Source of the DNA: an uncultured Gammaproteobacteria bacterium
GTDB taxonomy: Bacteria > Patescibacteriota > Microgenomatia > UBA10105 > UBA927
Direction: 5' to 3'
Length of the DNA: 64,000 nucleotides
Assembly (NCBI GenBank): GCA_964445435.1
Contig: CAYUKU010000001.1
Location: 44,384 to 108,383, forward strand
The position numbers and the translations under genes were made by a program. Below the pieces are notes generated by a model. The model made no database searches. It had not been told where the DNA came from and was given only the letters and a program-made list of their open reading frames with translations. Of this stretch, positions 110-53,566 are shown in pieces. Numbering within the stretch: the stretch's first letter is position 1; every line of letters begins with the position of its first letter.

Positions 110-1507
110 ATGGGGTCATCAGCCAAAACCACAAGATCATACCGGTGGATCCGGGCTATCGCCGCAGGTGTGGCATTTTTTTCACTGCTTATTCTTCTTG
201 TTATTGGTATATTTCGCAAATACTACGAAGGACGCATCTATCCGAACGTTACTATTGCAGGCGTACCATTTGGGGGACAGACAAGACTACAAGTCGCCCA
301 ATACTGGCAACAGAAAAACGAACCGTTTGGCAGTGCCCAATTTGAACTGAAATTCAAATCCACCATAGCCACGTTTTCGGGAAGCGATATTGAACTCGGA
401 TATGATGCTGATTTGTCCGCCACCCAAGCCTACCTGATCGGCCGCTCCGGAGGATTTTTAAGTAAGCTGAACGTCACATTCTTTCAGAAATCAGTGAATT
501 TAGAGCCGTATTTTCGATGGACGGAAAGCGTCGTTGATGAAACACTTGCGCAACTCGCATCTCAAATAGACATACCGGAGCAGGATGCGCTATTTCAGTT
601 TGCTGACGGAAAAGTTGTATCCTTCCGACCGTCAAAGACAGGCCAAAAACTTGACCAGGCTGAAGCCAAACGACGAATTCAGGAAGCATTCACAACCGTT
701 GCCCGGACGAACCAGCAGCGGGTGACCATTCTTTTACCGGTCGACACGGTAAAACCATCAACTGCCACAAATGACACGAACGCGTACGGCATAAAAGAAC
801 TCATCGGACGGGGCTATTCGGAATTCGCAGGGTCCATACCCGGACGCATTCACAATGTGGCACTGGCAGCCTCCCGTCTCAATGGAATCCTCATAAAACC
901 CGGCGAAGAATTTTCATTTAACAAGGCCATAGGTGATATTTCCGCAGCAACAGGGTATCAATCCGCGTATATTATTAAAGAGGGCAGGACGGTGTTGGGA
1001 GACGGTGGTGGCGTCTGCCAAGTCTCAAGCACGTTGTTTCGCGCGGCTTTGGACGCGGGGCTCCCGATTGTCGAACGTCATGCGCACGCATACCGGGTTC
1101 ATTATTACGAAGAAGGAGGGTACAAACCCGGCCTGGACGCTACAGTATTTAGTCCTTCCGTCGATTTACGAATAAAAAACAATACCCCGTCTTACATTCT
1201 CATCCAGACGAAAACGGATACAAAAAATCTGACCCTGACGTTTGAACTTTACGGAACCCGCGACGGGCGGAAAGCGGAAATTTTCAATCATGTGGTGTCA
1301 TCACAAACACCTCCTCCTCCCCCGTTATACCAGGATGATCCGACACTGAAAGCCGGCGTCGTCAAACAGGTCGACTGGGCAGCGTGGGGCGCCAAAGCCT
1401 CTTTTCAGTATAAAGTCACGCGAAACGGCGAAACGCTTGAAGACACCACCTTCTATTCAAACTTCCGCCCGTGGCAGGCGGTCTTCCTAAAAGGCACGGC
1501 GCCCTGA
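110..1507 (+). CDS. VanW-family protein with N-terminal membrane anchor
   Basis: N-terminal hydrophobic helix (IRAIAAGVAFFSLLILLVIGIF). The VanW-domain hallmark GDGGGVCQVSSTLFRAALDAGLP lies in the C-terminal half. Confidence 0.7.
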   Translation: MGSSAKTTRSYRWIRAIAAGVAFFSLLILLVIGIFRKYYEGRIYPNVTIAGVPFGGQTRLQVAQYWQQKNEPFGSAQFELKFKSTIATFSGSDIELGYDADLSATQAYLIGRSGGFLSKLNVTFFQKSVNLEPYFRWTESVVDETLAQLASQIDIPEQDALFQFADGKVVSFRPSKTGQKLDQAEAKRRIQEAFTTVARTNQQRVTILLPVDTVKPSTATNDTNAYGIKELIGRGYSEFAGSIPGRIHNVALAASRLNGILIKPGEEFSFNKAIGDISAATGYQSAYIIKEGRTVLGDGGGVCQVSSTLFRAALDAGLPIVERHAHAYRVHYYEEGGYKPGLDATVFSPSVDLRIKNNTPSYILIQTKTDTKNLTLTFELYGTRDGRKAEIFNHVVSSQTPPPPPLYQDDPTLKAGVVKQVDWAAWGAKASFQYKVTRNGETLEDTTFYSNFRPWQAVFLKGTAP

Positions 1508-1508
1508 T

Positions 1509-1925
1509 ATGAAAAAAGTGCTTGTCGGCGGCTGTTTCGATTTTATTCACTTCGGTCATATTTCGTTTCTCAAGCAGGCCAAAATGTATGGCGACTCGCT
1601 TGTCGTTGCGTTGGAATCCGATGAAAATGTGAAACGCGCAAAGGGTGAAACGCGGCCGATTCATTCGCAGGATAAACGGAAAATCATGCTCGAGTCCCTT
1701 TCATTTGTCGATGAGGTTATCAGCTTGCCTCCGATGCGAACCGACGAAGAGTATACGAATCTCGTGAGGGACGTGCATCCAGCCGTCATTGCGGTAACCG
1801 AGGACGATCCCATCATGGATAAGAAAAAGAGTCAGGCAAACAAGGTTGGGGCAACGCTCGTGGTTATTCCGAAAATCCATACACCGTCCACGTCTCAACT
1901 CGCCAAACTCCTGGGCCTCGAGTAA
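1509..1925 (+). CDS. cytidylyltransferase-like nucleotidyltransferase (TagD/RibL-like HxGH family)
   Basis: N-terminal GGCFDFIHFGHISFLKQAK matches the (T/H)xGH nucleotidyltransferase motif. The 138-aa size and the LVVALESDE...VDEVI pattern resemble glycerol-3-phosphate cytidylyltransferase / FAD synthase RibL. Confidence 0.55.
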   Translation: MKKVLVGGCFDFIHFGHISFLKQAKMYGDSLVVALESDENVKRAKGETRPIHSQDKRKIMLESLSFVDEVISLPPMRTDEEYTNLVRDVHPAVIAVTEDDPIMDKKKSQANKVGATLVVIPKIHTPSTSQLAKLLGLE

Positions 1926-1935
1926 AATAACTCCC

Positions 1936-2907
1936 ATGAAGATTCTCGCGATAGAAACAAGCTGCGATGAGACCGCGGCCGCGGTCGTTGAGGATGGAAC
2001 GAAAGTTCTATCCTCCATCGTGGCATCATCTGCGTCAATGCACGAGAAATACGGAGGCATCGTTCCTGAGATTGCGGCACGTGAACAACTCAAATGCATC
2101 ATGCCAACCGTCGAGGAAGCAGTCGCGCCTGTCGGCATTGATCACATCGACGCGCTTGCTGTAACAGTCGGGCCCGGCCTTATCGGATCGCTCCTCATCG
2201 GCGTAGAAACTGCCAAGACGATTTCATATATAACGGGCAAACCGCTTCTTCCGGTCAATCACGTTCTGGCGCACATGTACGCAAATTTTATAGAGAAAAT
2301 TCCAGAATTTCCCGCGATCTCTCTCGTTGTCTCAGGGGGACATACAGAACTGTATCTCATGAAGTCTGAAAAAGATCTTGAGTGGCTTGGCGGCACCCTC
2401 GATGACGCGGCCGGTGAAGCATTTGACAAAACAGCTCGACTTCTCGGATTCGGCCATGGCGGAGGTATAGCCATACAGCAAAACGCACGGGATAACGGCA
2501 TCGGCATCAAACTTCCCCGACCACTTCTCTACGACAACACACTGAACTTTTCTTTTTCCGGTCTCAAAACTGCCGTACTTCGGGAAATTGGCAAACAGAA
2601 AGAAAACAATAGTTTCGACAGACCAACAATTGAACAGGTAGCGTTTGAGGTACAGGAGGCAATCACTGATGTTTTGGCAGCAAAAACAAGACTAGCCGCC
2701 AAACAAAGCAATGCAAAAACCATACTTCTTTCTGGCGGAGTTGCCGCAAATCTTCGTCTTCGGGAAAAATTACCGGAGGCTGTAGCGCCGCCTGTTTCTT
2801 TGTGCACGGATAACGCGGTTTATATAGCCTCATACGCCTATTTTCGGGGCAAGAAAACTGATTGGCACGACATTAGCGCAGAGCCGGATCTTTCTGTTGA
2901 AGTATAA
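1936..2907 (+). CDS. tsaD: tRNA N6-adenosine threonylcarbamoyltransferase TsaD (Kae1/Gcp family)
   Basis: MKILAIETSCDETAAAVV start, HVLAHMYA and SGGVAANLRLRE motifs. The upstream ORF extension 1846-1935 is judged spurious because it overlaps the preceding gene. Confidence 0.9.
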   Translation: MKILAIETSCDETAAAVVEDGTKVLSSIVASSASMHEKYGGIVPEIAAREQLKCIMPTVEEAVAPVGIDHIDALAVTVGPGLIGSLLIGVETAKTISYITGKPLLPVNHVLAHMYANFIEKIPEFPAISLVVSGGHTELYLMKSEKDLEWLGGTLDDAAGEAFDKTARLLGFGHGGGIAIQQNARDNGIGIKLPRPLLYDNTLNFSFSGLKTAVLREIGKQKENNSFDRPTIEQVAFEVQEAITDVLAAKTRLAAKQSNAKTILLSGGVAANLRLREKLPEAVAPPVSLCTDNAVYIASYAYFRGKKTDWHDISAEPDLSVEV

Positions 2908-3400
2908 TCGCCTCTTCTTTGCACCAGGGAGAATAAACATCGTTTGTGTCAGCTGCTATTTCACGAAGAAATATCTTCCAGTCCATCCATTTCCAATCCT
3001 CAACTTCTTTTCTATTTGGATTGGGATCTTGGTCATACTGCCCAACAAGAATAGGACAAATTTCGTTTTCTACAATTCCGTTTCGGTCAGCTGCACGATA
3101 GCGGTACGGGGAGACCTCCTGTACATCAACGCCCTTAATACCCAATTCGTCTGTCAATCGTCTTTGGGCTGCGAGGACCGCAGACTCGCCCGGTGCAAGA
3201 TGGCCGCAAACGGTATTCGTCCATACACCGGGAAATGTTTTTTTTGAGAGGGCGCGTCGCGTTATGAGTATCTGTCTTTTGGAATTAAAGATAAAAAGTG
3301 AAAACGCGCGATGAAGCGGAGTATTTGTAGAATGGACCGTGTCCTTCGGCGCAGTGCCGATCTCCCGGTTATGTTCATCGACTAATACGACCAATTCCAT
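2873..3400 (-). CDS. idi: isopentenyl-diphosphate delta-isomerase, type 1 (Nudix fold)
   Basis: HRAFSLFIFN...ITRRALSKKTFPGVWTNTVCGHLAPGES...ENEICPILVG matches type-1 IDI including the catalytic Cys/Glu context. Convergent 35-nt overlap with the tsaD 3' end. Confidence 0.8.
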   Translation of the reverse strand: MELVVLVDEHNREIGTAPKDTVHSTNTPLHRAFSLFIFNSKRQILITRRALSKKTFPGVWTNTVCGHLAPGESAVLAAQRRLTDELGIKGVDVQEVSPYRYRAADRNGIVENEICPILVGQYDQDPNPNRKEVEDWKWMDWKIFLREIAADTNDVYSPWCKEEAIILQQKDPALR

Positions 3401-3401
3401 G

Positions 3402-3473
3402 TGGGCCCGCTTGGTGACGATCCAAGCGCCCCCATGTTATAAGCATGGTGCTCTACCGCTGAGCTACGGGCCC
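3402..3473 (-). tRNA. tRNA with anticodon UAU (tRNA-Ile, AUA-reading), 72 nt
   Basis: The reverse complement folds as a canonical cloverleaf. Acceptor GGGCCCG/CGGGCCC, D-arm GCTC-AGCGGTA-GAGC, anticodon stem CCATG/CATGG with loop CTTATAA (T33, anticodon TAT, A37), 5-nt variable loop, T-arm CTTGG-ATCGTCA-CCAAG, discriminator A, no encoded CCA. Confidence 0.75.
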
Positions 3474-3492
3474 GACAATAAATTATATCAAT

Positions 3493-3885
3493 TTACACCG
3501 CTTTTCTCACAATATGCCCCGCAACAACTCGAATTCCTATCAAAACACGCTCCTTTATCTCGGTGTCATAGACGCGGATTCCACAAGTACCGTGTCCGAA
3601 TCCTTTCTGATCGATATCACTTCTATTACTATCTTTCAGATATGGTTTGGTAAACTGTCGCAGTGGTAGGCCAAGCATGTCACTCCAGTACTTCATCTCC
3701 TTCAGAACGTTCATATCTTTATACAGATGAAGATATATTCGCAATTGATTCAAGGGCACCCGTAATCCTTTATGGATCCATTGCAGCGCAAACTGCATCA
3801 AGGTGGGATCTGTGTTACTTATGCTCAGCATATTGCGAGACCCTTTGTCGCCCTCCCCCCAATACAAAAAAAGTCCAGCTATCAA
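3493..3885 (-). CDS. LAGLIDADG-like homing endonuclease domain (downstream half of a split ORF pair)
   Basis: Starts on TTG in the -1 frame, overlapping the stop of the upstream HTH ORF. IAGLFLYWGEGDKG resembles a degenerate LAGLIDADG/LAGFIDGDG motif followed by a LYKD..VLKE helical region typical of that fold. Weak. Confidence 0.3.
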   Translation of the reverse strand: MIAGLFLYWGEGDKGSRNMLSISNTDPTLMQFALQWIHKGLRVPLNQLRIYLHLYKDMNVLKEMKYWSDMLGLPLRQFTKPYLKDSNRSDIDQKGFGHGTCGIRVYDTEIKERVLIGIRVVAGHIVRKAV

Positions 3886-4163
3886 TAGTCTTTGTGTGAT
3901 AAAGGGAGTAGGCTTCGAGCTTCCTCACTTCGATACTTATCTATCTTCATCTCTTGTTTTCTTCTCATTGTTTCTCTGAATTTTTCAATTCGTATCTCAC
4001 TTCGTCCCCGTAATGCGTTAATTTCTTCCTTTGTAAGAGGGCTATCGCGCAACCATATACTCAATGTGCTTTTGCCTACACCGAGGATCGATTTTATCTG
4101 GTTATAACTCTTCCGCTGGCGCCTTAAAATAAGGGCTTTACGACGGAGAAGTGTATGAGTCAT
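3882..4163 (-). CDS. resolvase/IS-type helix-turn-helix protein (upstream half of the split HTH + LAGLIDADG-like pair)
   Basis: SYNQIKSILGVGKSTLSIWLRD is a classic HTH. The ORF ends in TGA overlapping the TTG start of the downstream 130-aa ORF, so the two may be one frameshifted gene. Confidence 0.35.
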   Translation of the reverse strand: MTHTLLRRKALILRRQRKSYNQIKSILGVGKSTLSIWLRDSPLTKEEINALRGRSEIRIEKFRETMRRKQEMKIDKYRSEEARSLLPLSHKDY

Positions 4164-4225
4164 TTTGAACCAACAATGAATATTTTCTCAACAATAATTC
4201 CATTGTACGATAATGGAGAAAAGCA

Positions 4226-5623
4226 TCAAGCTCGAAGGAGAGATTCCATTTCCCCCTCAATATCATACGCGCGTTTTCTCGTTTTCCCGAAAATTATGTA
4301 TGCAAGTTTATCCATGCGCAGCAAATTTTCTGAAACAGTAATAACTCCTTCCCGTGTCGCTTTATCAAATAACACAGGTCGCAGCCGATCCTGGATCTGC
4401 CCAAACGTAAGGTGACCCAGGTGAGAAATATCGTAACTGTTATTGGAAAGTACGTTGGTGATGTACATGAAGTCCTTACCAAAAAGCTTGAGTGCCGTCG
4501 TATAGACAAACGTGCCGCCCGTGCTTCGCACGTTTGATTCCGTCACGAACAGTTGTCCGTTTCTGCCTGCGACAAAATCGACATCATAATATCCCCGATA
4601 CCCGGCAGCCGCGTACCGCTCTCCAATGAAAAATCCCGTATCTACCATCTGTGCCGCTATCCGGTCGCTCACCACCTCGTTGTGGATCTCCACGCCCTTG
4701 AAAATTCCCTCAGAGGTCATACGCATCCCGCAATAATAGAGAAACTCCACCCGTCCGTTTTTGAGGATTTTGAATTCCACATTCGGGCAACCACCACCTA
4801 TTGACGACTGTATCTGAATAAAATCTTCGACAATAATCGGAAATCTACTCCAATAGGCTTCCTTTTCAAGAATCTTCAGTATAGTTTGCTCGCATGCTAA
4901 GTAATCCTGCGGCAAATCTCCGGGGCGGAAAAGTAAAACTCCCATGCCGGCGTGCCCCTTGTTCGTCTTAATCACGACTCCGTTTTCCTTAATGTATCGT
5001 TTTGCCGCAATTTTGGCCGCATCTTCAACGCCGACACAAATAAGGCCTTCCGCCATTTGGAAATCCGGCTCTGCGTTTTGACTCTGCTGTGCTAATTGTC
5101 TTATACCTGACTTGCTCCCGTAAAAATTTACCGTCCACCCGTCTTCTTCTTCCGGCGCTTCCGGTGTGTAAATGGTAAGTCCGCGACTGCGAAGTTCACG
5201 CATGAGGTGAAGAAACTCCGGTGTCGTAGCGTAACTGACTACAGTCAGCCTTCTTGTGGAGTTTGCTATTTCCACAAGTCTTTTCATCATCGACTCGTCA
5301 TTGAGGATGTCATCACATAAGGCGCCCGTATGGTGCGTCATGGGAATAATCGTGATATGCGTATTGCCAAAAAGTCCCTGATAATACGAAAGGAATTGGT
5401 CGCTGACTCCCTGAGGACAAATGAAATAAACGTGATCATCCTCACCGCAAAACTGGAAAAGCCGCATATCCGCCAAAAAAACATTTTCCTGTATCTCGCT
5501 AACCCGGCCTTTTTTGTTTGACATTGCACTAATAAACGGCCACACGTCTTCCGACATGTTGAAGAAATACACAAGTTTTGATGGTAATTTCGACGCCCCT
5601 GAAGGACTGGAAGATATATCCAT
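4226..5623 (-). CDS. ATP-grasp superfamily protein (pre-ATP-grasp + ATP-grasp), function unknown
   Basis: Central KTNKGHAGMGVLLF, the later EDFIQIQSS...EFKIL and the C-terminal YYDVDFV..GQLFVTESNVR match the ATP-grasp nucleotide-binding and catalytic loops. 465 aa. Confidence 0.5.
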   Translation of the reverse strand: MDISSSPSGASKLPSKLVYFFNMSEDVWPFISAMSNKKGRVSEIQENVFLADMRLFQFCGEDDHVYFICPQGVSDQFLSYYQGLFGNTHITIIPMTHHTGALCDDILNDESMMKRLVEIANSTRRLTVVSYATTPEFLHLMRELRSRGLTIYTPEAPEEEDGWTVNFYGSKSGIRQLAQQSQNAEPDFQMAEGLICVGVEDAAKIAAKRYIKENGVVIKTNKGHAGMGVLLFRPGDLPQDYLACEQTILKILEKEAYWSRFPIIVEDFIQIQSSIGGGCPNVEFKILKNGRVEFLYYCGMRMTSEGIFKGVEIHNEVVSDRIAAQMVDTGFFIGERYAAAGYRGYYDVDFVAGRNGQLFVTESNVRSTGGTFVYTTALKLFGKDFMYITNVLSNNSYDISHLGHLTFGQIQDRLRPVLFDKATREGVITVSENLLRMDKLAYIIFGKTRKRAYDIEGEMESLLRA

Positions 5624-5688
5624 GCAGTTAGTATTTATTCCACCATATTAGGAGAATACCGCTTTTTGCATGTATGTAAAGAGGGAAA

Positions 5689-8037
5689 TTAAAGTCGCGC
5701 ACGATGCGCAATTTCCGCTTCCACTAATTCTTTTGATCTGCCGAACTTGAGGCGGGAAAGCTGAATGATCGCCTCGGCAACTTTCTGATTTTTCTCTGCG
5801 CTCACTTTTGCCATGTCTTTCGTTAAATCCATGCTAAAAGGTTTCACCGGCTCATTTCGGACACTCGTTTTTATGTAGGCGTTAAACTTATCAATATTGA
5901 TAAGGTCAGCTTCATTAAAAGTCGGCTGGAACTCGTGTTGGAGATAGTTGGCGTCCGTCACACCGACACGGAAGGAAACAACCGTTCCCACATTCCCGAA
6001 CACGGCGTTTTTCACTTCCTCTTCCATCTGTCCGATGAATTGATTGGCGACGATGAGGTTCAACCTATACTTACGGGCCTCGGAAAGAATCTGGGCAAAG
6101 TCAGGCGTTGCGAAATTCTGAAACTCGTCAACATAGAGATAAAAATCTCTGCGCTCGTTCTCCGGAATTTCCTGCCTACTCATGGCAGCGATAAGAATCC
6201 GGGGTACGAGAATAAGTCCTAAGAAGTTACTGTTTTCTTCGCCAATTTTTCCCTTCGCGAGATTCACGAGAAGAATTTTTCCGTCGTCCATCACTTTACG
6301 GAAATCAAAGGATGACTGTGATTGACCTATGATATTACGCATCAATTTATTCGTCACGAATCTTCCGAACTTAGACACAATGTAATCGAGAACTTCGGAT
6401 TTGTGAAAATCAGCAGTTTGCGCGATCTGATCGGTCCAGTACCGCCTGATAATCGGATCCTGAAGTTTAGGGAGAAGCTCCTGGACAAATGCGCTATCCG
6501 TAAGAACACGAACAACTTCAACGAATGTATTTCCCGGTTCGACCATGACAGTAAGCATCGCATTTCTAATAGCGTGCTCAAACCTCGGTCCGATGATTCC
6601 TGTTTTCATAGGATCGTACAGCTTATACATGAGGCCCACGATCGATGTCACGACGAAGTGCTTCTGCTCCTCGGTTTTTGCCTCGAGCATGTTTAATCCC
6701 ATTGGTCGCTCGATATCCGAGGGATCGAAATAAATAACATCTTCAGCGCGTGAGGCGGGCATCCGGGAGAGAACCCCGTCAATAAGATCGCCGTGAGGAT
6801 CGATAACGGCAATGCCTTTCCCCTCATTAATATCCTGGATAATCATTTCCTCAAGAAGTTGAGACTTTCCGGTACCTGTTTTCCCGATAACGTACATATG
6901 CCGCCGCCGGTCATCTTCCGCGATATAAATTGGCCGCTCGACACCACGATACCGGGATTTACCCAAAAACAACCCGCTCATGGGGATTTGGGAAGGCGCC
7001 GGTGCACGCTTCGCGTTAAGCCAATAAATATGTGCTGTTTCGATAGACTTATTTGGAAGGTGAAATACACTTGCTAGCTCATCGCTGTTCATAACGCTAA
7101 ACTGCCGAAACAACGGAATATTCATAACTGGGAAATACCGATAGATGAAGTCAATCATGAACAACTGTTTGAATGGCATTTTCACTTTCGTGAAATGATT
7201 ATGGTCGGATGAAAACTGGCTGAAACTGGTCAGAAGATTATCCAAATGCATCTGTGCATTTTCTCTCGTCTCTGCTGAAACAACACACCGTATAACGGCA
7301 TTGAAACCGGGTTTGCTTACTTTCTGTTCTATCGCCTCAAGAGTTTTGGGATCTACGGAAAAACTTGCTTTCTCTGGATTCGCCTCGTTCTTCTTCACTT
7401 TGGAAATATATGAACGGCCGGTGCCGCGCCATTTGTCATTCGCAGGCTGGATAAGAATTTGCACAGCAGCTGCTTCACCGGGGCGCATTTTCGCAAGAAC
7501 CGACGTAATGGAAGATAAGGGATCAGTCGGCAGATCACGGAAAATACGGATCGGCTGGTAATCTGCACCGCTTAAACACAGAGCCGCGAACGCTACTTTT
7601 CCTGTTTCCGAAAAGAGCGAATACTCCTCTACCTGACGGATATCAGCGCCCGGATATGCCCCATGAATCTGCTTTTCCACAAGATCGGTTAATTTCTTGG
7701 GAACCGCCACATAAAACCTGATATCCTCGGGTTTTGCCACGATTTCAAACGATAGATGTTCCTGCGGTTTCAGAAACGACCAAAAATCCCCGTGTGCGAT
7801 ACTATGTAAACTGGCAAACATCTGCTCTGCAGCGTCAATTTTGATTTCATTATCGCGAGGCACCGCTATCTGAAGGAGCACCGTTTCCAAAGAGTGCTCT
7901 TCCCGGTTGCGATACTTCCAGAAAAGAAACAGAATATATCCCACGAGGAATAAGCCCCCCACAAACAACACTAGAAGAATCAGGCTCACTCCGAGCATTT
8001 CCAACCGATACGTTATATCAATAAGTTGATCCTGCAT
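5689..8037 (-). CDS. TraD/VirD4-like type IV coupling protein ATPase (TraG-D_C family), membrane anchored
   Basis: N-terminal TM helix (LILLVLFVGGLFLVGYILFLFW). Walker A VIGKTGTGKSQLL, Walker B-like LYVDEFQNFA, and RKYRLNLIVANQFIGQM typical of the TraM-recognition (TraG/TraD C-terminal) domain. Confidence 0.6.
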   Translation of the reverse strand: MQDQLIDITYRLEMLGVSLILLVLFVGGLFLVGYILFLFWKYRNREEHSLETVLLQIAVPRDNEIKIDAAEQMFASLHSIAHGDFWSFLKPQEHLSFEIVAKPEDIRFYVAVPKKLTDLVEKQIHGAYPGADIRQVEEYSLFSETGKVAFAALCLSGADYQPIRIFRDLPTDPLSSITSVLAKMRPGEAAAVQILIQPANDKWRGTGRSYISKVKKNEANPEKASFSVDPKTLEAIEQKVSKPGFNAVIRCVVSAETRENAQMHLDNLLTSFSQFSSDHNHFTKVKMPFKQLFMIDFIYRYFPVMNIPLFRQFSVMNSDELASVFHLPNKSIETAHIYWLNAKRAPAPSQIPMSGLFLGKSRYRGVERPIYIAEDDRRRHMYVIGKTGTGKSQLLEEMIIQDINEGKGIAVIDPHGDLIDGVLSRMPASRAEDVIYFDPSDIERPMGLNMLEAKTEEQKHFVVTSIVGLMYKLYDPMKTGIIGPRFEHAIRNAMLTVMVEPGNTFVEVVRVLTDSAFVQELLPKLQDPIIRRYWTDQIAQTADFHKSEVLDYIVSKFGRFVTNKLMRNIIGQSQSSFDFRKVMDDGKILLVNLAKGKIGEENSNFLGLILVPRILIAAMSRQEIPENERRDFYLYVDEFQNFATPDFAQILSEARKYRLNLIVANQFIGQMEEEVKNAVFGNVGTVVSFRVGVTDANYLQHEFQPTFNEADLINIDKFNAYIKTSVRNEPVKPFSMDLTKDMAKVSAEKNQKVAEAIIQLSRLKFGRSKELVEAEIAHRARL

Positions 8038-8047
8038 ACATCCTCAA

Positions 8048-8506
8048 CTAGACTTTCACACGAATAAGAGTACTTCCCATTTTCTGAATACCGACATGAA
8101 GCTGCTTTAGCCTCTTCACGCACCATTCTGCAAGCCACCGCCAGGAGTCGTTCACGCTCTGGGTGAGTCCGCGGGCAATCTGGTCGTCAGAAATGGGAAG
8201 TGTAATGGTTGCCGTGGTAGCAACGGGAACACTTGCCGGAGCCGGCTTAACCCCCATCTGCGCGACCGGCTGGGGAATGGGAATAGTGGTTGGCTGCATG
8301 CGCACGCCTGCAGAGACGACTTCTTTCGGAAGTTCCATTTCACTGCCCGTCGCATCGATAAGTCCTTCTTTCGCGTCAATGGGAGCGCCCACCACCTCCT
8401 TGTTTCCCGATGGCGTTACAGGAATAGGTGACGCCGCAGGTTGAGCTGCGGAAACAATTTGGTCATCGGTTTGGTCGTTGGGAGTGGGCAGATTGGTCAT
8501 GTCCAT
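8048..8506 (-). CDS. hypothetical Pro/Ala-rich protein
   Basis: ORF in operon position between the 662-aa unknown and the coupling ATPase (10-nt gap). No recognisable domain. Confidence 0.35.
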   Translation of the reverse strand: MDMTNLPTPNDQTDDQIVSAAQPAASPIPVTPSGNKEVVGAPIDAKEGLIDATGSEMELPKEVVSAGVRMQPTTIPIPQPVAQMGVKPAPASVPVATTATITLPISDDQIARGLTQSVNDSWRWLAEWCVKRLKQLHVGIQKMGSTLIRVKV

Positions 8507-8512
8507 ATCATA

Positions 8513-10501
8513 TCATGAACCGTATGCAAATATGACGCCGTACATGGGCATAATCGTCGTTGCGGTTACCGTTTTTTTGTGTTTTTTGGTTTGCTTTTTG
8601 TTTGCCCCCGCTTTTGTCGTCTGCATACCCTGTTCCCGAATCATGGAAAGATGCCAGATAATCGCAAGAAGCAACCATTGGCCAAATTCCCGCTGTATAA
8701 GCCCTTCTGGGTGCCTTTCTCTTACGCGTGCAAGGAGACCAACTTCCTTCATGTTCTTCCCCTCTGTCCGCATATCCCCAGGCGCGGCGAGAAACGACTC
8801 GAGAGACTCCAATGTCGCGTGATAGCTCATAAGTTTCAATGTCATCCAGAGAGCAAGCGCAAGAGAAAATCGAGATATCTCATACCGCTCCCGTTTAATC
8901 GGCTCTGGTAAAAACGCACCCTCAGAAACATCCGGCGCACTGACAAGACGTTGCGTTTCTCCAAAAAGCATCACAAGAGACTGTTCTACTCGTTTCTTCT
9001 CACGAGCAATCGCTTCTTTCTGATCCTTTACCGGAAGCGCGTCTATACCTTCCAAAAATCTGATGGACCGGACAAATGTCTGCACGTCTACACTCTCTGA
9101 TACCTCAACCAGTTTGGGATTCGTTTCTGCTTCCGGCTGTTTACGTATTCCTTCACTCATCATCATAAAAAACAAGTCGAAAACATGTGCGCCAACCTGG
9201 TCCGTTTCGTTTGCGTTACCCTTTGACGTTACTGCATCCTTCCCTCCAAGCCTTTCCTCTGCGGGCATCAGAAACACACCTTCGCCCAACAATCCTTCAT
9301 GCGGCGTCAAAGTGAAGGTGTCTAGCGCGAAAAGGGCTGCGGGAACCCCGACACTTGAAGACTCTTGAACCAGTGCCGTGGCGAGGCTACGTATCTCATT
9401 GGCTTCTTCAAACGTTTCCCACATCTCCCGCACCTCAATATATAAGTGTTCTGATTGTTCTTCTGAAACTCCCAGGACATCTCGTACCGTTTGCGTCCAA
9501 ACTTCTACCTTTTCCGGCTCCGTAAGAAGAGAAAATCCGGGAGAAGCAGGTTCCGTGGTGATTGCGAGCATAACCGTCAGGTTTCCCTTGTGGATCACAT
9601 CTTCCAAGTTTCTGGTGTACGTTGGAGCTTCGTATGACACACTTGACTCCTCAACGATCTCTGGAGCGTGCTGCCGTTTCATATAGTCAACAACGCCGAC
9701 AATCGTCTCCCGCGTGTCATCCACAATGTTGTATGCCACCACTTCTGCTGTCTCGGAAGAAAGTGCGATAACCCCATATACGGCTGCCGCTAATCCTTCG
9801 CGGACATCATCCTCTGCTATCATATGATCTAGCGCTATAGACGCCATTTCCGCAACCTGTCGTTCACGCTCCCTTAAGATGAGCGGGAAAACCGATACAT
9901 CCCGAGATAGGCGCGCTAGATACTCCGCTCCCTCGTCCGTTGCAGCGACGGTTTCTTTGGCTTCTTGGAGAATCTCCTCTGGAGTAACGGTCCGGAAGAA
10001 AAGAAGCGGCTTTTCGAAATTATCGCTTTCAGATACGTCGGCACCGCCTTTCACGCCGAGTCCCCGAAAAAAATCACCAAGAGTTTCATCGTTTCCGTGA
10101 AATTCAACCGCAAGCGCCTGAATCGTGTTCCCTTCGCCCCTGCTGTAGAGATATATATAATTTCTTCCGTATCCCAAATCCGGACTTGCAACTGCAGCCA
10201 TCTCTATGGAATCATCGTTCATCATGGCTTTCTCTGCTGCCAAAACACGATCAAGCCTATCAGCACCCACGTCATCGGGATCGGTCAATTCTTCGATTGT
10301 TTTTCCACCGCTGTCCGTCCATCTTCCTTCTTCATTAATCTCGTAATCGAAAGGGATAAGCGTTTGCTTGAGGATAAACTCGTGATCGTGTGCTACTGCG
10401 TCTTTCGCAAGCGCCCTGGAAACCACGTCGAGCGATCTGCCGTTATCGAGCATTTCCTCCAGATAATTTTTTTCGTTTTGCGGATTCCATTCGTGACTCA
10501 T
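8513..10501 (-). CDS. large acidic hypothetical protein (662 aa)
   Basis: Long uninterrupted ORF, co-oriented and nearly contiguous with the downstream genes. No recognisable motif. Confidence 0.4.
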   Translation of the reverse strand: MSHEWNPQNEKNYLEEMLDNGRSLDVVSRALAKDAVAHDHEFILKQTLIPFDYEINEEGRWTDSGGKTIEELTDPDDVGADRLDRVLAAEKAMMNDDSIEMAAVASPDLGYGRNYIYLYSRGEGNTIQALAVEFHGNDETLGDFFRGLGVKGGADVSESDNFEKPLLFFRTVTPEEILQEAKETVAATDEGAEYLARLSRDVSVFPLILRERERQVAEMASIALDHMIAEDDVREGLAAAVYGVIALSSETAEVVAYNIVDDTRETIVGVVDYMKRQHAPEIVEESSVSYEAPTYTRNLEDVIHKGNLTVMLAITTEPASPGFSLLTEPEKVEVWTQTVRDVLGVSEEQSEHLYIEVREMWETFEEANEIRSLATALVQESSSVGVPAALFALDTFTLTPHEGLLGEGVFLMPAEERLGGKDAVTSKGNANETDQVGAHVFDLFFMMMSEGIRKQPEAETNPKLVEVSESVDVQTFVRSIRFLEGIDALPVKDQKEAIAREKKRVEQSLVMLFGETQRLVSAPDVSEGAFLPEPIKRERYEISRFSLALALWMTLKLMSYHATLESLESFLAAPGDMRTEGKNMKEVGLLARVRERHPEGLIQREFGQWLLLAIIWHLSMIREQGMQTTKAGANKKQTKKHKKTVTATTIMPMYGVIFAYGS

Positions 10502-10506
10502 AAAAA

Positions 10507-10523
10507 AACTTCTCGAATCGAGA
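10507..10523 (-). terminator. intrinsic terminator-like hairpin followed by a T7 run
   Basis: On the minus strand, CTTCTCG-ATT-CGAGAAG (7-bp stem) is followed immediately by TTTTTTT and then the ATG of the 662-aa ORF. Sits 118 nt downstream of the pduO-type gene. Confidence 0.45.
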
Positions 10524-10640
10524 AGTTGGCTTTGGCCTCTCCTTTGACTCGAAGGATACGCGTATCTGAAACCTGCGACCGGACTATCACCGTTGCGGTA
10601 CAGTTCCCGAGTTTCACGGGATTCGGAGTTTCGGATATGA

Positions 10641-11192
10641 CTATTTTTGGGTACGTTCCCGAGGAATACCGGACCAAACCGTTTCCTCGATATGATTGTT
10701 CTTATTTATAAATCTCGCAAGCATAAAAAACAAGTCCGATAACCGGTTGAGATATTTAATGATTTGAGGATCGACCTGTTGTCGCTGAGCCAAGGCAACG
10801 ACCTGCCGCTCTACGCGTCGCGCTATACTTCTGGTGACATGAATATGAGCGGCTTGCGGTGATCCGCCCGGGAGGATGAAATTGGCAAGCGGTGGTAAGC
10901 TTTTTTCCATCGCATCAATCTCCACCTCCATTTCGGTGACGCGGGTAGGAAGAACGGACAAATCAGCTTTCCAACCGGCAAGACTTCCTCCTACTGTAAA
11001 AAGGTCTGACTGGATTTTCACGAAAAGATCGCGAAGATGGTCAAATTTCGTTTCCGAGACAACGAGTCCCACCCAACTGTTGAGCTCATCCATTGACCCG
11101 TATGCATCGACTAACTCTTCGCATTTAAGAACGCGCTTGCCACCGAAGAGGCTCGTTTTTCCGGCATCGCCGGTACGGGTGTAAATCGGCAT
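10641..11192 (-). CDS. ATP:cob(I)alamin adenosyltransferase, PduO-type
   Basis: MPIYTRTGDAGKTSLFGG...DAYGSMDELNS is the signature N-terminus of PduO/MMAB-type adenosyltransferases. Confidence 0.85.
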   Translation of the reverse strand: MPIYTRTGDAGKTSLFGGKRVLKCEELVDAYGSMDELNSWVGLVVSETKFDHLRDLFVKIQSDLFTVGGSLAGWKADLSVLPTRVTEMEVEIDAMEKSLPPLANFILPGGSPQAAHIHVTRSIARRVERQVVALAQRQQVDPQIIKYLNRLSDLFFMLARFINKNNHIEETVWSGIPRERTQK

Positions 11193-11198
11193 AGAGTC

Positions 11199-13628
11199 CT
11201 AACACTCTGAGTATCCGCAGCTGTAGCATTTCTTGCAGGACTCTTCAAATACAAGACTCCCCTCCCCGCAGCTCGGACACAGATCGACGGTAACCATGCG
11301 TTTTTCCGTCAAAAGCATTTGCTGTGCTGGCACAGTCATCGGCTTTTCTGCCGGCTCCACTTGCGGTGCGTCCGTGTGGACAGTATGACCGTTCGTATGT
11401 CCATTTGCCTGTGCAGGCTTGGCATCGGTATTAATGGCAACTACGTCTTCCAAACGATGTTTCGTGAAAAATCCAAAATGCCGATCTATGACTTTTGCAA
11501 CCCCGTCCGGCAGACTTCGAACCCTGTTTTCACCAAAACCCATACTTCGCGCACCACCAATACCGATAAGCTCTGCTGCTATCTTATGAGCCCGTTCGAT
11601 AGCTGGGATGGGCGAGGCCATTCGGAGGGTTAGAGATATAAGCCGACCCATCGCCTCAGCCATTGCCGTCACATCACTCCCCGCTTTTCCGACGTTAATA
11701 AATACCTCAAGAGGTCGGTTGCCACCATTCGTATTAATGGTCACGTACGCCTGACCGACCGGGGTTTCTACCTGGTAGGTAGAACCGTGGACTACCATAG
11801 GTCTCGGTTTTACTTCGGGTACCGCTGGCTCTGCCGGCTTGGCAACTTCCTCTTTTTTTGGTTCTTCTTTCCGTTCCAATACGCCCTGCCTACTGCCCTC
11901 TCTCATGTAGGTAATTCCCTTACACCCTTGTTCATATGCCAACGTGTACAGGCGCTTCACGTCTTCTACCGTGTGCGTATTGGGTGCATTAACGGTTTTA
12001 CTTATGGACGCATCAACGTACTTCTGGATGGTAGCCTGCACGAAGACGTGATCTTCGGGTGTCAGGTCATTTGCGGATACGAACCATGCTGGCCGCTCTT
12101 CCTTCGTGGGTTCCCGTCCGCTGGTTTTCTTGAAATCTTCATACCATGCTTCGTACAGCGGATGTCTCAAAATATGCTCTCCCAGCCTGCTTCTTCGTAT
12201 GAACTCGAATTCATACACGGGCTCAATACCGCTTGATACGCCGGCCAGAAGCGATGTCGTTCCCGTCGGCGCCTGTTGAAGGATAACGCTGTTTCGCACG
12301 CCGTACTTTTTAATTTTCTTCTTTATCCTCTCTGGAAGTTGTTTGATGAAGTACGCCTCCAGATGTTTTTTGATTTCGATTTTTGGAAAAGCACCTTTTT
12401 CCTTGGCAATGTCGGCTGAAGCCTCATACGCCGCATCGCGGATAGTGCGGTAAATTTTGTCGATAACCGGCAGGCTTTCGGGCGATCCGTACCGGAGCTT
12501 CATCTTAATCAGTGCATCGCCCAGCCCCATGGTGCCAAGACCAATCCGACGTTCTCCCTGCTGCTGTACTTTTCGTATTTCGTCAAAAACGTAGAAATCC
12601 GCGTCGATCACGTCATCCTGAAACCGTACACCGATTTTGGCAACCTCTGCCAGGCGGTCATAATCCATTTCACCCTTGTCGTTCACGAGTGCAGCGACAT
12701 TTATGGAACACAGGTTGCATACCCCCCAGCTGGGAAGCCCTTCTTCACCACACGGATTTACGCAGTTTACGTACTCGAAATAGTAATTATTAAACCATTT
12801 GTTATAGCGCTCCATAAATACGACCCCGGGCTCCGCGCTTCTCCACGCGGCCTGTGCGATAAGATCCCACAGCGCCCGGGCTTTGAGCGTCTTATGGACC
12901 ACCGTTTTCTTGCCCATCGCAATCCAGTTGGGAAGATATCCATCCCATTTGGTGTCATAGTCAGGATCCGTCTTATCCGGAAACACGAGATTCCAGTCTG
13001 CATCGTTTTTCACCGCGTCCATAAATGCATCAGATACACAGACGGAAAGATTGGCTCCGTTTATCCGCGAAAGATCCTGTTTGACGGTGATAAATTCCTC
13101 GATATCCGGATGCCAATCCCACAACATAAGCATGAGCGCGCCGCGACGGCTACCACCTTGCTGGATAATATCTTTCGTCGCAACGGAAAAAAGCTCCGCC
13201 CAATTGCATGGACCGGAGGAAAATCCGTTTACCTTCGTAACCCGTGCCCCGCGTGGTCGAAGACTCGAAAGATTAATCCCCACTCCTCCACCGCGCGACA
13301 TGATTTCCACCATTTGGGAAAGCGTTTTGAGAATTCCCTGCCTGGAATCATGGGGACTTGGTATGACAAAACAATTGTAAAAGGTTACTTTGTATCCTGT
13401 TCCTGCGCCTGAAAGAATCCGACCCCCCGGTACAAACACGAAGTCCTGCATTGCCCCATAAAACTTATCCTCCCACTCCTGCCGCTTGGCTTTCGGTTCG
13501 ACTTGTGCAACGGCGTGAGCAACCCTTCGCCACATTTCCTCGGGAGTTTTCTCAATGGGAGCACCCTTTTCGTCTTTGACGGCGTATCTGTCTGCAAAAA
13601 CGTTTTGTCGGATTCCTGTTAATTCCAT
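11199..13628 (-). CDS. nrdJ: ribonucleoside-diphosphate/triphosphate reductase, class II (adenosylcobalamin-dependent)
   Basis: 809 aa. NCFV, CNLCSIN and SCVNPCGE active-site regions. C-terminal Zn-ribbon CPSCGEGSLVFEESCKKCYSCGYSEC. Sits in an nrdR-nrdJ-adenosyltransferase operon. Confidence 0.85.
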   Translation of the reverse strand: MELTGIRQNVFADRYAVKDEKGAPIEKTPEEMWRRVAHAVAQVEPKAKRQEWEDKFYGAMQDFVFVPGGRILSGAGTGYKVTFYNCFVIPSPHDSRQGILKTLSQMVEIMSRGGGVGINLSSLRPRGARVTKVNGFSSGPCNWAELFSVATKDIIQQGGSRRGALMLMLWDWHPDIEEFITVKQDLSRINGANLSVCVSDAFMDAVKNDADWNLVFPDKTDPDYDTKWDGYLPNWIAMGKKTVVHKTLKARALWDLIAQAAWRSAEPGVVFMERYNKWFNNYYFEYVNCVNPCGEEGLPSWGVCNLCSINVAALVNDKGEMDYDRLAEVAKIGVRFQDDVIDADFYVFDEIRKVQQQGERRIGLGTMGLGDALIKMKLRYGSPESLPVIDKIYRTIRDAAYEASADIAKEKGAFPKIEIKKHLEAYFIKQLPERIKKKIKKYGVRNSVILQQAPTGTTSLLAGVSSGIEPVYEFEFIRRSRLGEHILRHPLYEAWYEDFKKTSGREPTKEERPAWFVSANDLTPEDHVFVQATIQKYVDASISKTVNAPNTHTVEDVKRLYTLAYEQGCKGITYMREGSRQGVLERKEEPKKEEVAKPAEPAVPEVKPRPMVVHGSTYQVETPVGQAYVTINTNGGNRPLEVFINVGKAGSDVTAMAEAMGRLISLTLRMASPIPAIERAHKIAAELIGIGGARSMGFGENRVRSLPDGVAKVIDRHFGFFTKHRLEDVVAINTDAKPAQANGHTNGHTVHTDAPQVEPAEKPMTVPAQQMLLTEKRMVTVDLCPSCGEGSLVFEESCKKCYSCGYSEC

Positions 13629-18259: not shown

Positions 18260-18838
18260 ATGTCTATTGCGTACCTCCCTGTTGCGTGGAGCGAATATCA
18301 CGCTCTTGCCCGTACACTCGCTGCCAATATTCTCACGGACGGCATTCATATCGACGAAGTCGTCGCCATCTCAAGAGGCGGACTGACGCTAGGACATCTT
18401 CTGACTGATCTTCTTCGCGTTCCGATCTCCACATTCACTATCCAGAGCTACACCGATATTCAGGAGCAGGGAGAGGTAAAAATTACCAAACCGCTCACCA
18501 CCCCGATTCATGACAAACATGTTCTTCTCGTCGACGACGTATCCGACTCGGGAAAAACCATTAAACGCGCGCTCGAATATCTCAAGACACAGCAACCGAA
18601 AGAGGTAACGACGCTCACCATGTACTACAAACCTCACTCGGTATTCAAGCCGGATTATTACGCGAAAGAAACATCTGCGTGGATCCTCTTCCCGTATGAA
18701 CCTACGGAAATGATTACAAACATTATCGGGAGCATGAAAAAAGAAGGAAAGTCCCAAAACGACATTGACGACTTTCTTCATACACTCAACTACGCTGACG
18801 ATCAGATCAATTTCGTCAGAAAATTCTACAGCAAATAA
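18260..18838 (+). CDS. type I phosphoribosyltransferase (purine PRTase-like)
   Basis: VLLVDDVSDSGKT PRPP-binding motif. Typical size and layout for this family. Confidence 0.65.
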   Translation: MSIAYLPVAWSEYHALARTLAANILTDGIHIDEVVAISRGGLTLGHLLTDLLRVPISTFTIQSYTDIQEQGEVKITKPLTTPIHDKHVLLVDDVSDSGKTIKRALEYLKTQQPKEVTTLTMYYKPHSVFKPDYYAKETSAWILFPYEPTEMITNIIGSMKKEGKSQNDIDDFLHTLNYADDQINFVRKFYSK

Positions 18839-18846
18839 TTCCCCTC

Positions 18847-18875
18847 TTGACGCACATTCCCACGTTAGGTATAAA
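18847..18875 (+). promoter_or_regulatory. sigma70-like promoter (TTGACG-17-TATAAA)
   Basis: TTGACG at 18847-18852, 17-nt spacer, TATAAA at 18870-18875. Followed by a 5-bp hairpin AGGGC/GCCCT + TATTTTTT (18884-18910) and an AAGGAGG SD at 18918-18924. Confidence 0.5.
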
Positions 18876-18929
18876 AACGGTATAGGGCTTGATTCGCGCC
18901 CTATTTTTTGTGGCGAAAAGGAGGTAATT

Positions 18930-19109
18930 ATGTCAGCCGGCGGACAAGAATTAATTCCAGGAATTACAGGACCTACTACGGGTACAGCGGAGGCAACCCC
19001 ACCACCAACATTCACTCCCCCTGTGGACCAACCGCTCCATATAATCACGAGCGATACAAGCGGTGTTGTTGTATTGCCACAAGCGCCTGCGCCAGCAACT
19101 TCGACATAA
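18930..19109 (+). CDS. small Pro/Thr-rich ORF (59 aa) with strong SD, unknown function
   Basis: AAGGAGG 6 nt upstream of ATG. MSAGGQELIPGITGPTTGTAEATPPPTFTPP... No signal peptide. Confidence 0.35.
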   Translation: MSAGGQELIPGITGPTTGTAEATPPPTFTPPVDQPLHIITSDTSGVVVLPQAPAPATST

Positions 19110-19146
19110 TGCTTGTAAAAGCATGGCGATGGCGTTAGAATAGAGT

Positions 19147-19770
19147 ATGGTGGCTGACACACTTCAGCACAACCGTACGTACCTCAGAGAAGAATTTTTG
19201 CGTGAGGCAAAAGTTCTTGATCCCCGACGCGGCTATATCTCAGTTTCTTCGTTTAATTTGCGGATGAAACCAAACGTGCTTCGCGCAGCTGCTCAGCTTA
19301 TTGTCCAGGAGTTCAAAAACGACGGCATCAATACCGTGCATGGCATTCCCCACTCCGGAAATTATCTCGCTGCCGCGGTAGCCATTGAATTTGGCGATCG
19401 CGTGCGGCTCCACAGTTCCAGAAAAGACCAAACCATCCCCGCCACCTGGAAGGACGTGTATCGCCAAGAGGTACAATCGTTTACCACAAGCGACGACGCA
19501 GTAACGGTGTACTCCGGCATCAATCTTTCGTTCGTCCAGAAAGGAGACCGCGTCTTACTTCTGGATGATGTGTGCGCAACCGGCGAAACGGCATACCAGA
19601 TAGCAGGCGGGCTTCTCAACCGGGGCGTGAAAGTACTGGGATTTGCCGTGTTGTTTGACAAAATTTTTCAGGAAGGTCTCAAGTACGTCAGCGGGTTAGG
19701 CATTAAAACGTTTTCCTGCGTCAGGGTCGCCAAAATAGGAACAGGCGATCAGATTGTGTTACAAGAATAA
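19147..19770 (+). CDS. type I phosphoribosyltransferase (second paralog)
   Basis: VLLLDDVCATGET PRPP-binding loop. Confidence 0.6.
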   Translation: MVADTLQHNRTYLREEFLREAKVLDPRRGYISVSSFNLRMKPNVLRAAAQLIVQEFKNDGINTVHGIPHSGNYLAAAVAIEFGDRVRLHSSRKDQTIPATWKDVYRQEVQSFTTSDDAVTVYSGINLSFVQKGDRVLLLDDVCATGETAYQIAGGLLNRGVKVLGFAVLFDKIFQEGLKYVSGLGIKTFSCVRVAKIGTGDQIVLQE

Positions 19771-19773
19771 TAT

Positions 19774-21291
19774 ATGATACTCGTCATTGATTTCGGAAGC
19801 CAGACTGCTCACCTCATCGGTCGAAGACTGCGATCTCTAGGCGTTACTGTGGAGTATTGCTACCCTGACGTTGCCCTCTCAGTCGTCGACAAGCTCAAGC
19901 CGTCAGGTATTATTCTTTCCGGCGGACCGGATTTCGTCGACAGGCAAGGCGCGCCGACCGTTCCCAAGAAACTCTTCGACCTGGGCATTCCTGTTTTGGG
20001 CATCTGTTACGGATGGCAGCTTATGAGCTATCTTCTGGGCGGTGATGGCCAAATAACCGCAAAAGAATTCGGCCCGGAAACGCTTCATATCACGAAACCC
20101 GTCGACATATTCAAATTGCCCGAACGGGATTTTACCGTTATCGTCTCCCACGGATATACGGTAACAAAAGCGCCTCCCGGATTTGAAATCGTAGGATCCA
20201 CTGACCGCGTGCGTTTCACCGCAGGGTTTGACAAAAAACGCAAACTCTACGGCATCCAGTTTCACCCGGAAGCCCATCATACGCAGTACGGCACGGAGCT
20301 CCTTCGAAATTTCGCCCACGACGTGTGCGGGCAGGCTATCCAACCCATGAAACTCGATCCGGAAAAAATCATCCAAGACATCCGCACCACCGTCGGAAAC
20401 CAGAAAGTCATCTGTGCCGTCTCGGGAGGAGTTGATTCCACAGTTGCTGCGTTTCTCATCGGCCGGGCCATCTGGGACCATCTGATCCCTGTCTATGTCG
20501 ACAGCGGACTCATGCGTCCGGAAACCGACCTGCGCGTCAAATATATTTTTACAAAACTCATCCATGCCAATCTCATTATCGTCGATGCCAAAAAGCGCTT
20601 CCTTTCTGCTCTCGCAGGCATTACTGACCCTGAGGAAAAACGTAAAACTATCGGAAAACTCTACATAGATATCTTCCAGGAAGAAGCCAAAAAACATAAA
20701 GATGCGACATTTCTGGGACAAGGCACAATTTACTCGGATGTCATCGAATCGAAAGGAAGCAAACACGCTTCCCACATTAAATCCCACCATAACGTCGGCG
20801 GACTTCCCAAGGGACTCCCCTTCCAACTTCTTGAGCCGGTGCGGAATTTCTACAAAGACGAGGTTCGGGAATTGGGACGACTGGCAGGACTTCCGGAAGA
20901 TATTGTCATGCAACAGCCGTTCCCGGGTCCCGGGTTTGCCGTTCGCATACGCGGAGAGGTAACTGAAGAACGCCTTAAGCAGGTTATCATGGCCGACTCA
21001 ATCGTCGTTGAAGAGCTCACGCGGGCTAACTTATACGATTCGCTTTTCCAATGTTTTGCCATCATGACCGGCGCCTATTCAACGGCCGTAAAAGGAGACG
21101 AGCGGGCTTTTGCGGAAGTCGTGGGAGTCAGAGCGTACGAATCCCATGACGTTATGACCTCGCAATGGGCGCATATTCCGCATGAAATTCTTGCAAAAAT
21201 CTCCTCCCGCATCGTCAACGAGGTTCCGAATGTCTCCCGTGTCGTCTATGACATCACCACCAAGCCCCCGGCAACTATGGAATGGGAGTAG
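19774..21291 (+). CDS. guaA: GMP synthase (glutamine-hydrolysing)
   Basis: N-terminal class-I GATase (MILVIDFGSQ..., GICYGWQ). PP-loop SGGVDSTV. C-terminal dimerisation domain ending ...PPATMEWE. Confidence 0.9.
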   Translation: MILVIDFGSQTAHLIGRRLRSLGVTVEYCYPDVALSVVDKLKPSGIILSGGPDFVDRQGAPTVPKKLFDLGIPVLGICYGWQLMSYLLGGDGQITAKEFGPETLHITKPVDIFKLPERDFTVIVSHGYTVTKAPPGFEIVGSTDRVRFTAGFDKKRKLYGIQFHPEAHHTQYGTELLRNFAHDVCGQAIQPMKLDPEKIIQDIRTTVGNQKVICAVSGGVDSTVAAFLIGRAIWDHLIPVYVDSGLMRPETDLRVKYIFTKLIHANLIIVDAKKRFLSALAGITDPEEKRKTIGKLYIDIFQEEAKKHKDATFLGQGTIYSDVIESKGSKHASHIKSHHNVGGLPKGLPFQLLEPVRNFYKDEVRELGRLAGLPEDIVMQQPFPGPGFAVRIRGEVTEERLKQVIMADSIVVEELTRANLYDSLFQCFAIMTGAYSTAVKGDERAFAEVVGVRAYESHDVMTSQWAHIPHEILAKISSRIVNEVPNVSRVVYDITTKPPATMEWE

Positions 21292-53565: not shown

Positions 53566-53566
53566 A

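Follow-up and report, generated by a model that had tools for sequence, protein, structure and literature searches.

The 64-kb stretch of DNA analysed here (the window) carries a genuine, confirmed tRNA-Ile gene with the anticodon UAU at positions 3402-3473. The gene is probably functional and vertically inherited, and its product most likely serves as the main or only decoder of AUA codons, free of lysidine as in Mycoplasma mobile, in a genome with neither TilS nor tRNA-Ile2(CAU). Textbooks and recent papers treat the lysidine (TilS) system as nearly universal and essential, with tRNA-Ile(UAU) as a rare exception. The CPR lineage of the window keeps the UAU tRNA at a fixed locus despite heavy use of AUA. 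Together with the CPR relatives and a published table of protein families, the window gene suggests that an entire radiation reads AUA without lysidine, and the interest lies in this clade-wide pattern and not in the single gene.

Identity and structure of the tRNA gene

The only tRNA that ARAGORN finds in the window is a tRNA-Ile with the anticodon (tat), on the minus strand at 3401-3473. The Rfam tRNA model RF00005 matches 3473..3402 end to end (model positions 1-71) with 56.6 bits, compared to a gathering score of 29, and E = 1.6e-09. This E-value and the recurrence of the gene at this locus in relatives exclude a chance occurrence. The sequence-only reading had placed an isoleucine-type tRNA with a UAU anticodon at the correct coordinates and had read the loop correctly as CT-TAT-AA; this is the minus strand, which it left unstated. 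The coordinates of the gene, its parts and its neighbors are collected in Table 1.

Folded as a single sequence, the tRNA forms a cloverleaf of -32.7 kcal/mol (z = -2.66). The gene is uninterrupted over 72 nt, with no intron according to ARAGORN and Rfam. CCA is not encoded by the gene: the discriminator is followed by a C and then by the ATG of the downstream gene. The cloverleaf had been called canonical, a description that suits the fold and the Rfam match and does not suit the T-loop AUCGUCA or the missing CCA. Upstream of the gene lies a promoter-like site, the best within 2800-4300, which shows 10 of 12 consensus matches plus the TG element and ends 9 nt before the tRNA 5' end.

The usual T-loop of tRNAs is UUCRANN, and T54 and A58 are found in nearly all of them. 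The window tRNA carries A54 and U58 instead, and the same AUCGUCA loop occurs in the tRNA-Ile(UAU) of contigs L005, L029, L074, L107, and L120. The loop CUCGACA (C54/A58) is found in the tRNA-Ile(UAU) of L012, L060, L064, L086, and L126. A tRNA(CAU) gene sharing the contig with the tRNA-Ile(UAU) of L005 shows the normal T-loop TTCGATC. As judged from these comparisons, the atypical T-loop is conserved and clade specific; an effect on EF-Tu or on A-site behavior would be speculation.

Table 1. Coordinates of the tRNA-Ile(UAU) gene, its parts and neighboring synteny anchors in the window, and of ftsH-tRNA-Ile(UAU) linkages in other contigs
Feature	Position	Strand	Evidence or remark
tRNA-Ile(UAU) gene, 72 nt up to discriminator A73	3402..3473	-	ARAGORN, Rfam, MFE cloverleaf, same-locus orthologues
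tRNA sequence	3473..3402	-	GGGCCCG UA GCUC AGCGGUA GAGC A CCAUG CUUAUAA CAUGG GGGCG CUUGG AUCGUCA CCAAG CGGGCCC A
Anticodon UAU (ATA on + strand)	3439..3441	-	Sequence; ARAGORN anticodon at position 33
Anticodon loop CUUAUAA	3437-3443	-	Sequence
Atypical T-loop AUCGUCA (A54, U58)	3415..3421	-	Sequence
Promoter-like site GTGAGA, 17 nt, TG-n-TATAAT (extended -10), TGATATAAT	3482..3510	-	Consensus match only
Nudix-family gene, synteny anchor	2873..3400	-	Pfam NUDIX 4.1e-21; start 1 nt after tRNA, same strand
ATP-grasp-type gene, upstream of tRNA, same strand, synteny anchor	4226..5623	-	Pfam PreAtp-grasp
TsaD, synteny anchor	1936..2907	+	Pfam TsaD 8.2e-80
ftsH-tRNA-Ile(UAU) linkage, Parcubacteria-like CPR contigs	L001 2356-4250; L042 1273-3242; L083 441-2370; L087 9245-11232		
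ftsH-tRNA-Ile(UAU) linkage, continued (L096 to L138)	L096 5624-7669; L116 4533-6448; L125 5674-7682; L136/L137/L138 10001-12191		
ftsH-tRNA-Ile(UAU) linkage, continued (L139 to L143)	L139 10001-11892; L141 10001-11883; L142 10001-11992; L143 10001-12031		

Usage and meaning of AUA codons

In 49 nonoverlapping long open reading frames of the window, ATA occurs 276 times, corresponding to 15.8 per 1,000 codons and 22% of the Ile codons. Since ATA is this frequent, a decoder is needed in quantity. To derive the meaning of the codon, GuaA, TypA, and TsaD were each aligned with the E. coli orthologue, which gave a small sample of 25 ATA positions. These positions face Ile in E. coli in 28% of cases, I, V, or L in 76%, and Met in 4%. 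In the same alignments, ATT and ATC face Ile in 32-33% of cases, and ATG faces Met in 32%. The profile of ATA resembles those of ATT and ATC and differs from that of ATG, which on the strength of these alignments shows AUA to stand for isoleucine in the window organism.

The identity elements recognized by E. coli IleRS are A73, t6A37, A38, C4-G69, U12-A23, and C29-G41. The window tRNA has A73, A37, A38, U12-A23, and C4-G69, which are Ile-type features; its pair 29-41 is A29-U41, not C29-G41. This missing pair, and the fact that the tRNA was typed by its anticodon alone, would fit a tRNA that is not specific for isoleucine, with AUA reassigned (e.g., to Met, as in many mitochondria) or with another amino acid charged. 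Such a reassignment is highly improbable given the alignment profile of ATA and the agreement of A73, A37, and A38 with isoleucine.

Locus and host clade

The gene order VanW, cytidylyltransferase, TsaD, Nudix, tRNA, ATP-grasp, type IV secretion system (T4SS) coupling protein, in part followed by adenosyltransferase and ribonucleotide reductase (RNR), is common to the window and its relatives, with amino acid identities of 52-88%. This syntenic locus is found in at least nine related contigs (L012, L029, L044, L060, L064, L074, L086, L107, and L126). The Nudix protein beside the tRNA shows 55-68% identity in L012, L029, L060, L064, L074, L086, and L126, the ATP-grasp-type protein shows 53-58% in L012, L029, L044, L060, L064, L086, and L126, and TsaD shows 64-67% in L012, L029, L060, L064, and L086. 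In most of the syntenic contigs, including the window, the Nudix start codon follows 0-23 nt after the tRNA. Every syntenic copy of the tRNA has T34, and the pattern of the metagenome scan admitted C or T at this position.

In addition to VanW, the cytidylyltransferase, TsaD, Nudix, and ATP-grasp proteins, the window encodes a TrwB/VirD4-like coupling protein, a cobalamin adenosyltransferase, a class II RNR with NrdR, two PBP1A proteins, GuaA, TypA, and a type I restriction enzyme. This gene content is CPR-like, with VanW, the T4SS coupling protein, and the class II RNR as the pertinent genes. In a protein search, TypA has a 100%-identical match on a 248-kb NCBI contig, and its named relatives with 75-80% identity all belong to Candidatus Gottesmanbacteria or to the "Patescibacteria group." By the evidence of these relatives, the host is a bacterium of the Gottesmanbacteria (Microgenomates, Patescibacteria/CPR).

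Distribution and conservation of tRNA-Ile(UAU)

A pattern of the D-arm and the CUUAUAA loop was used to scan 185,579 species-representative genomes. It returned 14 loci, all typed as tRNA-Ile(tat), 12 of which carry titles of Patescibacteria-lineage metagenome-assembled genomes (MAGs): Paceibacterota, Falkowbacteria, Saccharibacteria, Spechtbacteria, Woesebacteria, Microgenomates, and the unclassified "Patescibacteria group." The two remaining loci bear just the titles "bacterium" and "uncultured Gammaproteobacteria." A scan of metagenomes, with C or T allowed at position 34, gave 115 loci with 51 TAT and 65 CAT matches. In CPR loci chosen by FtsH alone, tRNA-Ile(UAU) lies just downstream of ftsH in five of five. 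A UAU anticodon encoded in the genome had been called rare, a judgment shared by the papers that treat tRNA-Ile(UAU) as an exception; it fails for this lineage, with 14 species-representative genomes (12 titled as Patescibacteria), 51 metagenome contigs, and all five ftsH loci. The tRNA looks common in CPR and, as far as these scans reach, ordinary within its clade.

An alignment of 29 distinct CPR tRNA-Ile(UAU) sequences was examined for covariation. All 609 stem cells (100%) are paired, both sides have changed in 14 of the 21 pairs, and none of 500 shuffles reaches the observed values. Controls with slid partners collapse. The invariance of the D-arm and the anticodon loop is uninformative because both were fixed by the search pattern. 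The alignment shows that the cloverleaf is kept through compensatory changes, as expected for selection on its structure.

The atypical T-loop and the unusually long upstream spacer of 752 nt, which contains an open reading frame without a family match, would agree with a tRNA that is decayed, was recently acquired, or belongs to a mobile element and that plays no part in host decoding. This origin is very hard to reconcile with the nine or more related contigs that carry an orthologue at this locus, the fully paired stems with compensatory changes, the conservation of the odd T-loop itself in the clade, and the common ATA codon, which requires a decoder. Neither 2.9 million viral contigs nor 50,697 phage records gave a match to the tRNA pattern, so that, by these collections, tRNA-Ile(UAU) is not phage borne.

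The surroundings of the gene differ among CPR contigs. In Parcubacteria-like contigs, tRNA-Ile(UAU) is located 0-300 nt downstream of ftsH and is often followed by tRNA-Val. In the Paceibacterota-type contigs L002, L008, L014, L039, L040, L058, L067, L089, and L092, the gene is placed between the ValRS and LeuRS genes, and the adjacent ValRS is short, with about 700 amino acids. Contig L023 encodes on the plus strand (8005-11670) a CPR FtsH of 1,221 amino acids that harbors an intein with a LAGLIDADG domain, and tRNA-Ile(UAU) follows directly. Contig L123 is a metagenome contig with 63% GC, not CPR, and contains about 33 tRNA genes in 9.7 kb (1243-9735); several of these could not be typed by ARAGORN, with anticodons of four or two bases.

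TilS, tRNA(CAU), and IleRS

TilS acts on C34. Position 34 of the window tRNA is T (window 3441, minus strand), not C, and the gene therefore needs no TilS by construction; the sequence-only reading rightly described it as lysidine independent, as TilS has no substrate there. The further step of that reading, that the gene implies the loss of tilS, does not follow from the gene alone, because tilS and tRNA-Ile(TAT) occur together in some bacteria (Taniguchi et al., PMC3575796).

Motif and family searches of the 64-kb window detected no TilS. The SGGxDS motif occurs in only one open reading frame of substantial length, GuaA, and a second time in a frame of 67 amino acids. ARAGORN found no tRNA(CAU) in the window. 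A TilS profile (HMM) had no match in ∼0.95 Mb of collected loci, roughly half of which is CPR DNA, and a phmmer search of the same loci for IleRS yielded none, the matches being ValRS and LeuRS. The class I synthetases adjoining some CPR copies of tRNA-Ile(UAU) are ValRS and LeuRS. Among the matches listed for a profile of the TilS N-domain (E. coli, Geobacillus, and Aquifex) searched against 5.8 billion proteins, only enteric and Aquificae sequences appear.

In Supplementary Data 1 of Meheust et al. (2019), the TilS family (K04075, PF01171) is present in 123 of 2,321 CPR genomes compared to 866 of 1,198 non-CPR bacteria and is flagged as "depleted," a count that may be too low for CPR, as the family has a median length of 438 amino acids and short CPR TilS proteins such as that of Southlakia epibionticum, with 294 amino acids, might be clustered elsewhere. 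In this cultured Saccharibacterium (CPR), TilS is encoded by SEML1_0730, with the Tn-seq calls NE/ES/ES, and is apparently essential. Three genes of S. epibionticum are annotated as tRNA-Met and only one is annotated as tRNA-Ile, which corresponds to the canonical system. Because this TilS-bearing organism has no second tRNA-Ile, the two systems, tRNA(UAU) and TilS, are suggested to alternate.

tilS is located directly upstream of ftsH in S. epibionticum and many other bacteria. In Parcubacteria-like CPR loci, a gene with an S1 domain occupies the tilS position upstream of ftsH. The open reading frames just upstream of CPR ftsH were considered as divergent TilS and rejected: they encode S1-domain, TrpRS/TyrRS-family, or PAP2 proteins or have no Pfam match, and none has a PP-loop. 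No TilS gene was found within 10 kb in any of the five CPR loci chosen by FtsH. A lone weak PF01171 match in these loci belongs to an NAD-synthase/GuaA-C-like protein and not to TilS.

A redundant decoder, with tilS and tRNA-Ile2(CAU) also present in the genome and AUA read by both tRNAs, is the alternative to be weighed against these data. Coexistence is documented, for example, in Lactobacillus casei/plantarum, Cyanothece, and Ferrimonas, which have the same kind of tRNA but have kept TilS, making AUA decoding redundant. TilS also exists in CPR, as in S. epibionticum and the 123 genomes mentioned above, and an elongator-type tRNA(CAU) of the GCCAG[GC]G/GCTAGGG family, which may be Met or Ile2, lies near tRNA-Ile(UAU) in L005, L090, and L095; a further member of this family is found in L088. 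These points are countered by the presence of TilS in only about 5% of CPR genomes, its absence from the window and the collected loci, and the lack of a second tRNA-Ile gene in the TilS-bearing cultured bacterium. A C34 sibling of the CPR-type tRNA was also sought in the metagenomes and rejected: the CAT matches are high-GC non-CPR tRNAs, and the only CAT copy with a CPR-like acceptor stem, L026, resides on a non-CPR contig of 62% GC with RpoD and PTS genes. Redundancy of the Lactobacillus or Cyanothece type is, on these clade-level data, the less likely case for the window organism, and rather improbable. TilS looks mostly absent from CPR, again at the level of the clade, and on the same basis, the genome of the window organism can be expected with reasonable confidence to be without TilS. 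The preferred reading remains that of a main or sole AUA decoder.

Comparison with known systems

tRNA-Ile(UAU) was reported by Taniguchi et al. in nine species (2013, PMC3575796) and in 17 genomes by the tRNAscan-SE 2.0 paper, and a 2026 preprint refers to "rare cases." One published description credits 98% of bacteria with TilS and calls it evolutionarily stable. No paper linking CPR or Patescibacteria with lysidine or tilS was found in the searchable literature. The kind of tRNA is already known from M. mobile, Bifidobacterium, Neorickettsia, and two archaea, and the CPR lineage is new.

The best-described case is that of M. mobile, in which U34 is unmodified, Arg865 of IleRS is needed, and the ribosome rejects AUG (Taniguchi et al. 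2013, PMC3575796). The tRNA-Ile2(UAU) of M. mobile resembles that of the window in its genomic UAU anticodon, the lysidine-free reading of AUA, and the small genome, with the absence of tilS being probable for the window organism at the level of the clade. M. mobile belongs to the Tenericutes and not to the Patescibacteria, and its kind comprises a few species compared to many classes of a superphylum. The clade-specific T-loop distinguishes the window tRNA from that of M. mobile, whereas the properties of U34, of IleRS, and of AUG rejection were demonstrated in M. mobile only.

Bifidobacterium and Neorickettsia likewise have tRNA-Ile(TAT) as bacteria without a tilS homologue. Their own feature is a horizontally acquired IleRS of the eukaryotic type, and the window has no IleRS gene. 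An IleRS adapted to U34 would be of this eukaryotic type or would carry Arg or Lys at the position of E. coli W905. The canonical system of tRNA-Ile2(CAU) and TilS, as in E. coli and S. epibionticum, fulfills the same task, the reading of AUA as Ile without the reading of AUG, but relies on C34, in contrast to T34 in the window gene, which leaves TilS without a substrate. The archaea Nanoarchaeum equitans and Korarchaeum cryptofilum, likewise ultrasmall or deep-branching lineages, use a UAU tRNA in place of the tRNA with a modified C; there, the agmatidine (TiaS) system is replaced and not the lysidine system. The eukaryotic tRNA-Ile(UAU) has an intron and the anticodon pseudouridine-A-pseudouridine, in contrast to the uninterrupted window gene, and the context of the window is bacterial and CPR-like (PBPs, VanW, TsaD, NrdR, and GuaA).

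Proposed decoding of AUA

The tRNA would probably be transcribed from its own extended -10 promoter and matured by a CCA-adding enzyme. It would then be charged with isoleucine, presumably by IleRS. In tRNAs that read ANN codons, A37 is expected to be modified to t6A37, which is made by TsaD. t6A37 is presumed for the window tRNA as well, with TsaD encoded two genes away and near universal in CPR. The frequent AUA codons would be read as Ile through U34-A pairing.

The table of Meheust et al. (2019) counts TsaD in 1,942, MnmA in 1,495, and MnmG in 5 CPR genomes; in non-CPR bacteria, MnmG is counted in 897 and MnmA in 948. The near absence of MnmG from CPR argues against a modification of U34 of the xm5U type. 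The sequence-only reading had also proposed a changed way of telling AUA from AUG, which is conjectural. How a plain U34 avoids AUG is a question on which the window tRNA bears and which is testable in cultured Saccharibacteria relatives with either system.

More tentatively, tRNA-Ile(UAU) might be the standard AUA decoder of most Patescibacteria, with TilS as the exception, and might even be ancestral (LUCA type, as Taniguchi et al. proposed). In this wider and rather doubtful scheme, U34 would carry no MnmEG-type modification, and the A54/U58 T-loop (in Gottesmanbacteria) or features of the ribosome would block the reading of AUG. If true, lysidine-free reading of AUA would be a major bacterial regime and not a curiosity, as Patescibacteria make up a large share of bacterial diversity. 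The pattern also bears on the annotation of tRNA(CAU) and tRNA(UAU) in CPR MAGs, on completeness marker sets that contain TilS, and on TilS as a proposed broad antibacterial target.

Other features of the window

The tRNA is separated from the ATP-grasp gene by 752 nt (3474-4225), compared to about 40-390 nt in the syntenic relatives. This spacer contains an open reading frame of 130 amino acids on the minus strand (3493-3885) with the motif GLFLYWGEGDK, which has no counterpart in the relatives and no Pfam or NCBIfam match and may be the remnant of an inserted element. A LAGLIDADG remnant was considered for this frame and rejected, as it shows neither a family match nor similarity to a CPR LAGLIDADG protein.

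A tilS-hpt-ftsH arrangement is common in Firmicutes. The window carries a purine-salvage cluster at 18260-21291 on the plus strand, composed of two phosphoribosyltransferases together with GuaA and a purine nucleoside phosphorylase; neither tilS nor ftsH adjoins its Hpt-like gene.

A marginal match to the AdoCbl-II riboswitch (37.5 bits compared to a gathering score of 36.5) is located at 10570-10637 on the minus strand, between the cob(I)alamin adenosyltransferase gene and an open reading frame of 662 amino acids without a family match. It adjoins the B12-dependent class II RNR and NrdR.

The stretch from 52000 to 64000 has a G+C content of 0.41-0.43, compared to about 0.47-0.50 before it. 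It codes for the type I restriction enzyme HsdR (59383-62463) and contains large open reading frames without family matches at 56893-59379 and 62469-63623. This stretch may be an acquired island.
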